Shown here: piece by piece, positions 2,619 through 5,611 of the stretch | Position numbering within the stretch: the first letter of the stretch is position 1 | Layout of the letters: each line of letters opens with the position of its first letter | Source: Patescibacteria group bacterium | Lineage (GTDB): Bacteria; Patescibacteriota; Microgenomatia; Levybacterales; UBA12049 | Assembly (NCBI GenBank): GCA_038064195.1 | Contig: JBBTTO010000002.1 | Location: forward strand, 25,643 to 74,980 | DNA: 49,338 bases | Direction: 5' to 3' | Made by a program: the position numbers and the translations under genes | The notes under the pieces: model-generated | What the model saw: only the letters and a program-made list of their open reading frames with translations | The model's database searches: none | What the model was told of the DNA's origin: nothing

Positions 2619-2677
2619 TAACAAGACGCACTTCATCCGTTCCGATGCAAAATCGGAGCGAGATAAGTCTATCAGTA
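2619..2677 (+). promoter_or_regulatory. cassette B 5' leader element (L1 - hairpin - L2)
   Basis: TTAACAAGACGCACTTC, then hairpin TCCGAT/ATCGGA, then AAGTCTATCAGTA. Homologous to 5563-5611. L1 and L2 are complementary to 5241-5252 and 5146-5156. Confidence 0.55.
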
Positions 2678-2697
2678 TATTTATATTTCCTTACTAC

Positions 2698-2758
2698 TTG
2701 TCATCCTGAACTTGTTTCAGGATCTCAGGAGATGCTGAAATGAATTCAGCATGACAGG
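2698..2758 (+). repeat. hairpin module copy 2 plus second hairpin (three-way-junction-like)
   Basis: ATCCTGAA/TTCAGGAT 2703-2723; ATGCTGAA/TTCAGCAT 2732-2752; flanking TGTCAT..ATGACA can close both. Confidence 0.5.
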
Positions 2759-3143
2759 TTTAGATAGTTCAAATTCCAGTTTTAATGGCATATCCAAGCA
2801 TTGCCAGGAACCGCGTACGGTGCGGAGGATGTTCAGGGCAGGAACATTTTCCACTAACACCGTGCGCGATTCCTGGCATATGTGATTGCTTCAGACGTAA
2901 GTCGGGAGCAGCCGGATGTGCCGGAAAATCGGCATGTCGCTTTGACATGCTGTCGTGAGGAGCACGGAGGTGAAAGGTAAAAAATTCCTCTTCGTCCCGG
3001 CAGTTGCCGCGCTCGGCGTCGTTACAAAACGGCGTCACGCGGACGCTGTTTGGGGAGTCTCCCTACGACGTCGTCACAATGTTCTGTTCGGTTCGTTTTC
3101 ATTTCTCATCAGCCCGCGAGGGCAAAAGGAAGGTAATACTACC

Positions 3144-3683
3144 GTGGATACGATCAACTTCAACGACGCGATGAACCCAGCGCTTCGACGGTCAGCTTCA
3201 CAGGCAATGGTTCGCCTGGCAACTGCCATCGAGCAATGGGACGACGTGGATCCGGAGACGCGCAAAATCGTCATCCGGACCACGATCATCACGATCACCG
3301 AAGCGCAGGCGGCAGCAGCCCAACGGTTTGGGCTGCTCCTGCAGCTGAACACGAACTTCGATCTGGCGAACTACCTCGACATGGAGAGCCTCCAGGCTCT
3401 CGGAGATCCGCTGATGGGGGCTTTCGCCTTCATCCGTCGGATCCTCTCGCTCGAGGACACGACCGACCAAGACACGCTCCTCGACATGTTCGCCCTCCCC
3501 TTCAACGCGGAGGACGCCCCTACTCTCGGCGGTAACGCCGCAGTGGTGGGGTACGCGGACGACACCAACCCTTTGGCGCTCTCGCCGAGGGCCTCCGACG
3601 ACTCGGATGGCTCATCGGCACAGACGACCGAAGGCGAGGGCGAATCCCGCGACGCGGACGCGTCCGACGACACGACGGCCTAA
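3144..3683 (+). CDS. hypothetical protein with acidic C-terminal tail, cassette B gene 1
   Basis: GTG 3144 lies 10 nt after AAGGAAGG 3126-3133. Same frame as ORF 2955..3683, whose N-terminal 63 codons have no SD and odd composition. ATG 3171 is an alternative start. Confidence 0.55.
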   Translation: MDTINFNDAMNPALRRSASQAMVRLATAIEQWDDVDPETRKIVIRTTIITITEAQAAAAQRFGLLLQLNTNFDLANYLDMESLQALGDPLMGAFAFIRRILSLEDTTDQDTLLDMFALPFNAEDAPTLGGNAAVVGYADDTNPLALSPRASDDSDGSSAQTTEGEGESRDADASDDTTA

Positions 3684-3760
3684 GAACCGTCAATCGACTC
3701 GAAGAGGGCGCCCCGACATGTCGTCGGGACGCCCAAGTAGACACTGGAAGGAGAACTGGA

Positions 3761-4324
3761 ATGGCAACCGTGCCAAATCTCATCGCAGAAAGTCACGCCA
3801 GACGGCGCGACAATCCGATGACAGTTGCTCAGGCCAAACAGCGCCTGATCGACGAAAAACTGGCCCCCAGGAACGTTAAGGTCGTCAACGACCCCGACGA
3901 ATACCCGGGGGTTCTCTGGATGTCGCCGCCCGCAGGGACGACGCGCCCCGACTGGTCCGACGTTGACCTTGATGTGAACGTTCGACCCACCGCTGACCTC
4001 GGCGAAGACGACGAATTCGGCGTCATGCCGGCAGTCGCCGGCAAGATGCTCGACAACACGACTAGGAAGCTCCTGGAAAAGAGGGGCTTCATCGTCACGG
4101 ATCGGACCTGTAAAAGGATCCACGACTCCATGACGCCCAAGGGAAAAATCACCTTCCAGCACCCGCTCGCGGGTGTCAAGGTGGCCAACCCCAACGAGCC
4201 GGGGTCCTGGAAAATCCAGGTCTCGGACGGCCCCGAGCCGCCCGACGACGAGGAGCACAACGAGCAACCCGGAACAAATCGTCCCGGCATCGTTAGCCGG
4301 ATTTGGAACGGCAAGATCGTTTAA
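3761..4324 (+). CDS. hypothetical protein (187 aa), cassette B gene 2
   Basis: GGAAGGAG 3746-3753 lies 7 nt before ATG 3761. GC-rich. No recognisable motif. Confidence 0.65.
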   Translation: MATVPNLIAESHARRRDNPMTVAQAKQRLIDEKLAPRNVKVVNDPDEYPGVLWMSPPAGTTRPDWSDVDLDVNVRPTADLGEDDEFGVMPAVAGKMLDNTTRKLLEKRGFIVTDRTCKRIHDSMTPKGKITFQHPLAGVKVANPNEPGSWKIQVSDGPEPPDDEEHNEQPGTNRPGIVSRIWNGKIV

Positions 4325-4350
4325 GCGGCACAGCCGCGGAGGAAACTGAC

Positions 4351-5049
4351 GTGAAACAAGCAATCAAGATCATCGTCATCGGCGCGATCACAATCGTCGT
4401 CGGCCTCATACTTCTCGGAATCGCCGTAGGAGAGGACCCACGCGACGGAGTCCCCGTTCAAGATGGGGCCAACGCCGCGGCTCCGACGTCCACCCCGACT
4501 ATCAATGCCGGGGATCTCAAGGCCTGTGACGATGGGTCCTACGTCCTTCCGGGCAAAGATTGCCCGAAGGCGGAGGGTCCCACCGCAACCCCGACCGTGA
4601 ACACTGGCAATCTCAAGCCGTGCGACAACGATATCTACGTACTGCAGAACGTCAACTGTCCCGGTGCGGGATCGGCACAACCAACTGCTGTGCCGGCAAA
4701 GGAGACAGAGCCGACCAAGGAGTCGGCCCAGCAAGCCTGCCTCGGGAGCGCCAAGTTCGATCTCTCGGCGCCCGACACCTTGACCCTGGCTAACCCCGGG
4801 TTCATGGTGGTCGATTTCTACACCCAGGGTCAACCCCAAAGCGTGACCGTGCTGCCGTTCCCAACGGCAAACATGGTCTACGATCTGAAGGGCTCAGTTC
4901 TGGGAGCCTACTGGATCTACCCGGCGTCCTGTGATATGGACGTCCTGGTCAACCAGGCCATCGCTCACGCCGACCAGCTCAAGGGCGAAGGCTACAACAT
5001 CACCGGCTATATCTCTTGGGAAGACAGTGGTGTCTTTACCAAAAAGTAG
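4351..5049 (+). CDS. membrane-anchored extracytoplasmic protein with tandem Cys-containing repeat, cassette B gene 3
   Basis: GGAGGA 4338-4343 lies 7 nt before GTG 4351. N-terminal TM helix IKIIVIGAITIVVGLILLGIAV. Internal duplication PT(S/A)TPT(I/V)N(A/T)G(D/N)LK(A/P)CD. Confidence 0.65.
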   Translation: MKQAIKIIVIGAITIVVGLILLGIAVGEDPRDGVPVQDGANAAAPTSTPTINAGDLKACDDGSYVLPGKDCPKAEGPTATPTVNTGNLKPCDNDIYVLQNVNCPGAGSAQPTAVPAKETEPTKESAQQACLGSAKFDLSAPDTLTLANPGFMVVDFYTQGQPQSVTVLPFPTANMVYDLKGSVLGAYWIYPASCDMDVLVNQAIAHADQLKGEGYNITGYISWEDSGVFTKK

Positions 5050-5057
5050 CTAAGCTC

Positions 5058-5095
5058 GGGGCCCCCTACCCGCCTTCAGGCGGATGGCGGGCCCC
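5058..5095 (+). other. GC-rich nested hairpin directly after cassette B stop codon
   Basis: GGGGCCC 5058-5064 pairs with GGGCCCC 5089-5095, enclosing CCGCC-ttca-GGCGG. No U-tract. Confidence 0.3.
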
Positions 5096-5250
5096 ACCCC
5101 GCAAGAGGACGTAAAATCCGCCTCAAACGGATCACGCCCCTAGGGTACTGATAGACGCGCGAAGTTCATATGTCTGATGATCAGAAGCCACAGCGTTCGC
5201 GCTGCCAAGCTTTCGTTCTTCACGGTATATGACACTTCAGGAAGTGCGTC

Positions 5251-5340
5251 TTATGGTCCTCCGATAATCATCGGAGCTGATGAGTTCCTTCCGCAAGCTC
5301 AGGTAAACTCTGAAATTGTAGATAAGGACGAAACCAAAAA
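5251..5340 (+). ncRNA. hammerhead ribozyme, type III topology (HHR1)
   Basis: GUC 5256-5258; stem I hairpin 5259-5276; CUGAUGA 5277-5283; stem II 5284-5290/5324-5329; GAAA 5330-5333; stem III 5251-5257/5333-5339. Confidence 0.8.
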
Positions 5341-5368
5341 TAAAACTACATTAACAAGCTAATTATAA

Positions 5369-5397
5369 TTGACATGTCCTATAGGATATGTTAGGAT
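5369..5397 (+). promoter_or_regulatory. sigma70-type promoter of cassette C
   Basis: TTGACA 5369-5374, 17-nt spacer containing the palindrome TCCTATAGGA, TAGGAT 5392-5397. Paralogous to 1692-1720. Confidence 0.6.
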
Positions 5398-5562
5398 CCA
5401 TGTACCATTTGAGGCTGTGATTGGAGACAGGAACGATAACAAATAGTTTTAAGCTATTAACCATAAGCCATACGCTATTTGCCAATTTTGTTTCTCTCCC
5501 CAACCGCACTATCTTTGCGACCGATTGAGGTCAAAAAAGCTACGGATGGGTTTTATAGAACC

Positions 5563-5611
5563 TTAACAAGACGTACTCGGTCCGATGTTACATCGGACTT
5601 AGTCTATCAGA
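5563..5611 (+). promoter_or_regulatory. cassette C 5' leader element (L1 - hairpin - L2)
   Basis: TTAACAAGACGTACTCG, then hairpin GTCCGATG-tta-CATCGGAC, then TTAGTCTATCAGA. L1 and L2 are complementary to 7335-7345 and 7169-7178. Confidence 0.55.

Follow-up and report, generated by a model that had tools for sequence, protein, structure and literature searches.

The leaders that precede two protein-coding cassettes, B and C, in the genome of a Patescibacteria bacterium are probably control modules of the type known from ribosomal RNA (rRNA) operons. The window, i.e. the whole stretch analysed, comprises 49,338 nucleotides (nt) of GenBank contig JBBTTO010000002.1, positions 25,643 to 74,980 (G000:C2:25643-74980), and belongs to a 1.08-Mb genome of five contigs with a guanine plus cytosine (GC) content of 43%. 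Each leader appears to consist of a boxA site, the 5' strand of an outer helix (P1), a hairpin and the 5' strand of an inner helix (P2). The corresponding trailer strands lie in the 3' untranslated region (UTR), where a hammerhead ribozyme is predicted to cut 6 nt past P1. Since boxA and the end-pairing strands stand before a hammerhead, the protein genes would be packaged like rRNA. The most likely function of the module would be to support antitermination and tethering by Nus factors and to close a leader-trailer helix, with the ribozyme then forming a base-paired 3' end.

BoxA, long-range pairing and the leader hairpin

The leader copies at 2613-2678 (B) and 5558-5611 (C) are 80% identical over 81 alignment columns and have in common a hairpin and two blocks, L1 and L2. 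The block TTAACAAGACG is conserved at 2618-2628 in B and 5563-5573 in C, and the block AGTCTATCAG at 2666-2675 and 5601-5610. The two conserved leader elements reported in a preliminary description of the window are therefore real. Its start for the second element, 5563, was correct, while the first begins at 2618, one base before the position given there (2619).

By its sequence the invariant 5' block is the rRNA boxA of the lineage. GTTCTTTAACA(AG) is a perfect match to the boxA consensus GYTCTTTAANA of Baniulyte et al. (PMC5725501), and the block of B extended by five bases leftward reads GTTCTTTAACAAG. This exact 13-mer occurs three times in the genome, each time within the array of short units to which B and C belong. 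A functional boxA of Legionella, GTTCTTTAAAA, is near-identical to the boxA of B (PMC7862264). In C the site (5558-5568) retains seven of the ten specified consensus positions, C4 and T6 included. Genes for NusB (75 bits) and Rho (94 bits) were found in the genome; the Nus-factor gene check covered these two.

Each of L1 and L2 has an exact reverse complement in the 3' UTR of its own cassette, the two lying in nested order, and both can be assigned as the 5' strands of a predicted leader-trailer helix of the pre-rRNA style, interrupted by the leader hairpin. The pre-16S rRNA of Enterobacteriaceae has this layout, with a leader-trailer helix interrupted by leader helices and boxA upstream (PMC10250234). 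Comparison of B with C shows both bases exchanged, and pairing kept, in three pairs of P1 and one of P2; two terminal pairs are lost, and U-G wobbles distinguish the copies in P2 and in hammerhead stem I. These compensatory changes indicate that the pairing was retained after B and C split. The number of such helices expected by chance is at most 0.01 per helix (rough estimate). Exact-match statistics were used because the z-scores from RNAduplex, run on wide windows of leader and trailer, were noisy (-0.3 to -5.0). Cofolding of leader and trailer predicted the same four-way junction for B and C, formed by P1, the leader hairpin, P2 and a trailer domain, with a ddG of about -22 kcal/mol relative to the separate folds. 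The helices, 12+12 bp in B and 11+10 bp in C, are split by this junction; a gene for RNase III is present in the genome. The earlier proposal that L1 and L2 each pair with the 3' UTR is thus borne out by exact complements of 10-12 bp and by the four compensatory changes.

Both leaders have more stable predicted folds than their shuffled sequences (z = -4.4 for B, -2.0 for C), and the prediction for leader B alone favours an extended hairpin. As had been described, the hairpin is maintained with differing sequence, the core being UCCGAU/AUCGGA in B and GUCCGAUG/CAUCGGAC in C. It had also been likened to stem I of the hammerheads. The likeness in sequence is real (CTCCGAT/ATCGGAG, 5259-5276; CTTCGAT/ATCGGAG, 7352-7369), but such hairpins are common: those of the form CCGAT-loop-ATCGG are over-represented genome-wide, with 36 loci compared to 10 and 2 for two control hairpins. 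The 22-mer at 5579-5600 of leader C is identical to 19629-19650 within an insertion in the 23S rRNA gene. The 8-bp palindromic stem of leader C also occurs in the 16S leader (C3:101880-101897) and, with loci L071-L080, in four of eight congeners (one to four copies) and in one genome of the same order. Its contexts in the congeners include 23S and transfer RNA (tRNA)-like sequences, in which it partly forms an over-long anticodon-like arm; ARAGORN made no call on the relatives' tRNA-like genes with this palindromic hairpin. As a guess, the leader hairpin might be a shared protein site. Coordinates of the features are collected in Table 1.

Table 1. Features of cassettes B and C and of the 23S rRNA locus (window positions)
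Feature	Position	Strand	Description
boxA of B	2613-2625	+	GTTCTTTAACAAG; 11/11 positions of consensus GYTCTTTAANA at 2613-2623
P1 of B	2623-2634 with 5241-5252	+	12 consecutive Watson-Crick pairs; 5' strand is the variable part of L1
Leader hairpin of B	2637-2660	+	core TCCGAT/ATCGGA at 2641-2657; predicted in leader alone, retained in leader-trailer cofold
P2 of B	2667-2677 with 5146-5156	+	11 Watson-Crick pairs; plus U-G, giving 2667-2678 with 5145-5156
Cargo of B	2955-5049	+	three GC-rich open reading frames (2955 or 3144-3683; 3761-4324; 4351-5049), from the list of open reading frames
Type III hammerhead of B	5251-5347	+	predicted cut after C5258; CUGAUGA 5277-5283, CGAAA 5337-5341; RF00008 25.9 bits, E = 0.0013 per genome
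Promoter-like site 5' of leader C	5369-5397	+	TTGACA-17-TAGGAT, palindromic spacer
Degenerate boxA of C	5558-5570	+	GAACCTTAACAAG; aligned to boxA of B
P1 of C	5569-5579 with 7335-7345	+	11 Watson-Crick pairs
Leader hairpin of C	5580-5598	+	GTCCGATG/CATCGGAC; 8-bp palindromic stem
P2 of C	5602-5611 with 7169-7178	+	10 Watson-Crick pairs
Cargo of C	5913-7103	+	protein of 396 amino acids, twin-arginine-type N-terminus
Type III hammerhead of C	7344-7412	+	predicted cut after C7351; core intact; RF00008 25.1 bits
23S trailer strand	18911-18926	-	pairs with leader strand, 16-bp leader-trailer helix
23S boxA-like site and leader strand	22382-22402	-	GCTCATTAACAAG; forms, with 18911-18926, a 16-bp inverted repeat on either side of the 23S gene

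Recurrence, rRNA comparators and hammerheads

The combination of boxA and a P1 pair, different in each case, recurs in at least nine cassettes of the genome and in four relatives. In the genome itself it was found in units Z, Y, B, C, D and U, with W and X read from the sequence; unit D lies 400 kb from the array. In cassette A an 11-bp pair goes with a degenerate boxA, and the homologue of A in the congener G196 has a perfect boxA. The design is also present in G196, in a second genome of the genus (G193) and in one of the same order (G002). In a genome of the same family (G106) boxA is abutted by a hammerhead and the trailer match is weak (8 nt); in G196, too, a hammerhead ends directly at boxA. 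Across the cassettes the helix starts at boxA positions 7-13, thus abutting or overlapping boxA, and the paired strands, which differ in every cassette, lie 0.4-2.6 kb apart. Cassettes of the family other than B and C have boxA and P1 with no L2, and most boxA-P1 cassettes have no hammerhead after the trailer.

The association was measured on matches to GTTCTTTRACAAG in 15 genomes, with random positions of the same loci as background. Nine of 20 matches had an exact complement of at least 10 nt within 1.45 kb downstream (background 2.4%), and six of the 20 had one of at least 11 nt (background 0.6%); one site is counted twice in these figures, as two loci overlap.

The same signals accompany the rRNA genes. 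In relatives, GCTCTTTAACAAG or GTTCTTTAACAAG stands in the spacer that separates a tRNA from the 23S 5' end, confirmed with Rfam in six cases (L019, L054, L058, L060, L064, L066), and the adjoining word of the 23S leader is retained in 31 of 41 relatives, including 8/8 within the genus. In the present genome a boxA-like site stands in the 16S leader ahead of an 11-bp helix strand with a counterpart in the 16S trailer, and the 23S gene is flanked in a comparable manner (Table 1).

The full leader type of B and C, with hairpin and L2, was found in two copies only across all genomes and contigs searched. The exact pattern matched the two known copies alone in 245 genomes of the order and gave zero matches in viral contigs. 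A relaxed pattern gave 16 matches in JGI metagenome contigs, about the number expected by chance, none with a hairpin or boxA context. A covariance model built from the two leaders and run on 31 genomes, as the preliminary description had suggested for finding further copies, recovered the training copies only. As no third full copy was found and L2 is in no other cassette of the family, recent common descent probably explains why B and C have L2, the hairpin and the ribozyme in common.

Both hammerheads have an intact GUC cleavage triplet, CUGAUGA and GAAA, closed stems I and II and an open stem III; the one of B carries a 40-nt insert in stem II, and stem I of the one of C is still paired through a U-G wobble relative to B. 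In both cassettes the outer helix P1 ends 6 nt before the predicted cut, the intervening bases being AUGGUC. The genome has four hammerhead candidates, all in the array and on the same strand, and the hammerhead pattern had zero matches in viral contigs. An Rfam search of window positions 1-8000 at E <= 5 left the leader unmatched and recovered the hammerhead of C alone.

Several further observations concern the hammerheads. The two other type III candidates (L001 9906-9981 and 10124-10200) bracket an open reading frame (ORF) of 36 codons, and 4 nt after the second of them GTTCTTTAACAGG is followed by a 9-bp leader-trailer pair. TTAACAAG follows hammerhead B (5351-5358) and GTTCTTAAGCAAG follows hammerhead C (7444-7456); they may be vestiges of the hammerhead-boxA junction of the relatives. 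A reading of the leader hairpin with L2 as a decayed hammerhead, or of CTGATGA at 5172-5178 as a second core, was rejected: no stem II or GAAA partner is present, and the feature is missing from C.

Proposed mechanism and alternative explanations

In the mechanism proposed, NusB-S10 would bind the nascent boxA and render RNA polymerase resistant to Rho, so that it could pass through the structured leader, long and untranslated, and then the GC-rich cargo. The bound boxA would hold the leader strands at the RNA exit, ready to pair with the trailer as it emerges; a boxA tether of this kind has been proposed to bring a leader strand to its downstream complement (PMC8632103). Pairing would close the cassette RNA into a loop at the four-way junction. 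The hammerhead would then cut, leaving the 3' end of the messenger RNA (mRNA) tucked against the helix and the 5' leader region paired to the trailer, an arrangement that would stabilise the transcript. RNase III may process it further.

Several results weigh against this interpretation. Both hammerheads score below the Rfam gathering threshold (25.9 and 25.1 bits compared to 48.5; E = 0.001-0.002 per genome). The boxA of C is off consensus at three positions and that of cassette A is more degenerate, so the site is not strictly maintained. Matches to GTTCTTTRACAAG in relatives do not outnumber those of a reversed-pattern control, so it is the context, and not the word alone, that separates true from chance sites. 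Just two copies are known to have L2 and the hairpin, possibly as a result of recent shared ancestry. The sequencing-run search matched window DNA in groundwater metagenome runs and listed no RNA run with the window sequence. Classical RNase III substrates are longer than helices of 10-12 bp. Each helix here has only 10-12 bp, compared to more than 17 bp for E. coli 16S (PMC10250234).

A more elaborate version, possible though doubtful, makes each cassette a self-contained antitermination domain. NusB-S10 on boxA would license and tether the polymerase; pairing of the trailer with the strand next to or overlapping boxA would strip the factors and reset the polymerase at the cassette border, and the hammerhead would free an end-paired mRNA which one of the two RtcB ligases could circularise.

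Slightly less probable, and on balance unlikely, is a circular-RNA cassette resembling a retrozyme, in which hammerheads cut at both ends to give 5'-OH and 2',3'-cyclic phosphate, the helix joins the ends, and the ribozyme or RtcB ligates them to a circular mRNA. Cassette C does lie between two hammerheads of the same strand that share the cut site UAUGGUC (predicted cleavage after 5258 and 7351), and a 2093-nt circle of C would restore an intact ribozyme. Relatives with a hammerhead immediately 5' of boxA would fit this scheme, as would the two RtcB ligase genes of the 1.08-Mb genome. It does not extend to B, which has no hammerhead just upstream, the nearest being several cassettes off, nor to the many boxA-P1 cassettes that have no hammerhead after the trailer. 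A promoter between hammerhead B and leader C is also against it, and a search by Perreault et al. for RNA circles or splice products from clustered bacterial hammerheads was negative (PMC3088659).

The preliminary description had suggested a riboswitch-like or assembly-controlled element in which a local AGAC:GUCU helix and the long-range pairing alternate and regulate expression. We consider this improbable. AGAC and GUCU are present in both copies and can pair locally, and the two folds are mutually exclusive by construction. The local helix, however, has only 4 bp, with a predicted probability of 0.36 in leader C alone and 0.05 in B, where it is not the predicted fold; its pairs are invariant between the copies and thus give no covariation signal. 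The leader has no aptamer-like conserved pocket and no Rfam family at E <= 5, neither the pattern searches nor the covariance model gave further copies, and the other cassettes of the family do without L2. The mutual exclusivity suggests no more than the order of transcription, in which the leader folds locally until the trailer has been transcribed and pairs with it thereafter. Because P1 adjoins or overlaps boxA at its 3' end, the binding of Nus factors could be in competition with the formation of the helix, and protein-bound and paired states could alternate. The leader is not regarded as a riboswitch, and no evidence was found for a ligand-controlled or otherwise regulated switch.

Least probable, and only barely credible, is a DNA-level element, the blocks being terminal inverted repeats or recombination sites of transposon- or integron-like mobile cassettes and not RNA helices: complementary ends alone cannot distinguish DNA from RNA, and the GC-rich cargo varies among cassettes and related genomes, but the pair is different in every cassette and so offers no common transposase site, boxA and the hammerhead, both RNA signals, adjoin the helices on the sense strand in every case, the helix extensions use G-U wobbles, and an identical design flanks the rRNA genes. 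Integron-type core sites (a GTTRRRY/RYYYAAC pair) or target duplications were not visible in the sequence, and contigs of four other groundwater DNA runs had no joint that skips a cassette. Integron attC sites and terminal inverted repeats were accordingly rejected as candidates for these unit-specific pairs.

Genomic setting and relation to known systems

The array is a same-strand series of short units that occupies window positions 1-7400 and 9 kb upstream of the window; its units have a GC content of 55-70%, compared to about 40% in the surroundings. An N run (assembly gap) lies within cassette Y just before window position 1 (L001 11634-11645), so the left end of the window begins inside a unit. 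The cargo of B has a GC content of 58-67%, with flanks of about 40%, and its ORF 3761-4324 encodes a PASTA domain (Pfam, E = 3.7e-9). The cassette C protein has no Pfam family. Five homologues with 45-62% identity were found in Logan assemblies, and protein-guided scans of genome contigs and metagenome contigs gave no relative.

The promoter-like site before leader C is one of a family of five (window 1692-1720 and 5369-5397; L001 7513, 7619 and 9325) with TTGACA, a spacer containing the palindrome CCTATAGGA and a TAgnAT-like -10. The array also contains an XRE-type helix-turn-helix gene (L001 8513-8923), a candidate repressor. Between leader B and its cargo lies a 59-nt double-hairpin element (2698-2756), with a half copy at 2566-2595. 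In four groundwater runs its depth is about 25 times that of the flanks (198 compared to 8), with many unrelated flanks and contig breaks; it is a multi-copy repeat common to many organisms. Far from the array, on the minus strand, an isolated cassette (G000:C2:434970-435498) has GTACTTTAACAAG, a 13-bp leader-trailer pair and one small ORF, with a heptamer-palindrome repeat just upstream. The nusB gene lies directly 5' of the RNase III gene (G000:C4:55328-55994), rho (C2:15114-15326) lies beside the array, 1.5 kb from its left edge, and the two RtcB paralogues are 1.5 kb apart (C4:22111-26180).

Leaders and spacers of rRNA operons (boxB-boxA-boxC, rrnTAC; PMC10250234, PMC8632103) have the same boxA consensus as the cassettes, likewise located just 5' of, or within, the 5' strand of an enclosing long-range helix, which is likewise interrupted by a leader hairpin. 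The motif is also found at the 23S genes of the lineage itself, and genes for NusB, Rho and RNase III are present in the host genome. The cassettes differ in that they enclose translated mRNAs with one to three ORFs and Shine-Dalgarno sites, in their predicted hammerhead-made 3' end, and in having no recognisable boxC. Helices of rRNA operons measure 25-40 bp, those of the cassettes 10-12 bp in two segments, and the hairpin follows boxA in the cassettes and precedes it in rRNA operons.

Outside rRNA, a consensus boxA is likewise present in the leaders of suhB and other mRNAs (PMC5725501), and boxA in leaders of clustered regularly interspaced short palindromic repeat (CRISPR) arrays is attributed to Stringer et al. 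2020 as cited in PMC7862264; the Legionella CRISPR site GTTCTTTAAAA is nearly the same word as the cassette boxA. Such sites are thought to act on Rho-dependent termination (PMC5725501, PMC7862264). In the accounts cited no leader-trailer helix or ribozyme is reported for the suhB and CRISPR sites, and in suhB boxA represses expression.

The clustered prophage hammerheads of Perreault et al. 2011 (PMC3088659) likewise punctuate small variable genes on one strand. They flank single genes or short blocks, and it was proposed that they convert a long transcript into gene-length mRNAs, their function being unknown (PMC3088659). No boxA or end-pairing was described for them, whereas here a covarying helix ends 6 nt before the predicted cut. 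Retrozymes and viroid-like RNAs share with cassette C the two-hammerhead unit and the paired ends, with a ligase of the RtcB type available. Unlike these, the cassettes are chromosomal and protein-coding and have their own promoters, B has one ribozyme, and no sign of circles or replication was seen. In full-text literature searches no paper turned up in which boxA, a leader-trailer helix and hammerheads are combined around protein genes, nor one on hammerheads in bacteria of the candidate phyla radiation (CPR).

Hundreds of bacterial hammerheads were found in 2011, and what they do has been an open question ever since. The combination of boxA and a leader-trailer helix is regarded as rRNA machinery, to which a few mRNA and CRISPR leaders were added later. 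At its narrowest, the present analysis explains the nature of the leader and removes the riboswitch reading. If the cassettes were self-contained antitermination domains, bacterial hammerheads would have a defined job and gene arrays a new form of insulation. The two systems are joined here around ordinary protein genes, in a fixed geometry that recurs across related CPR genomes. This geometry and recurrence make three ideas directly testable: that Nus-factor tethering aids the long-range folding of mRNA, that ribozymes set mRNA 3' ends in bacteria, and that bacteria with small genomes may express variable GC-rich surface or secreted proteins by means of rRNA-style transcription.

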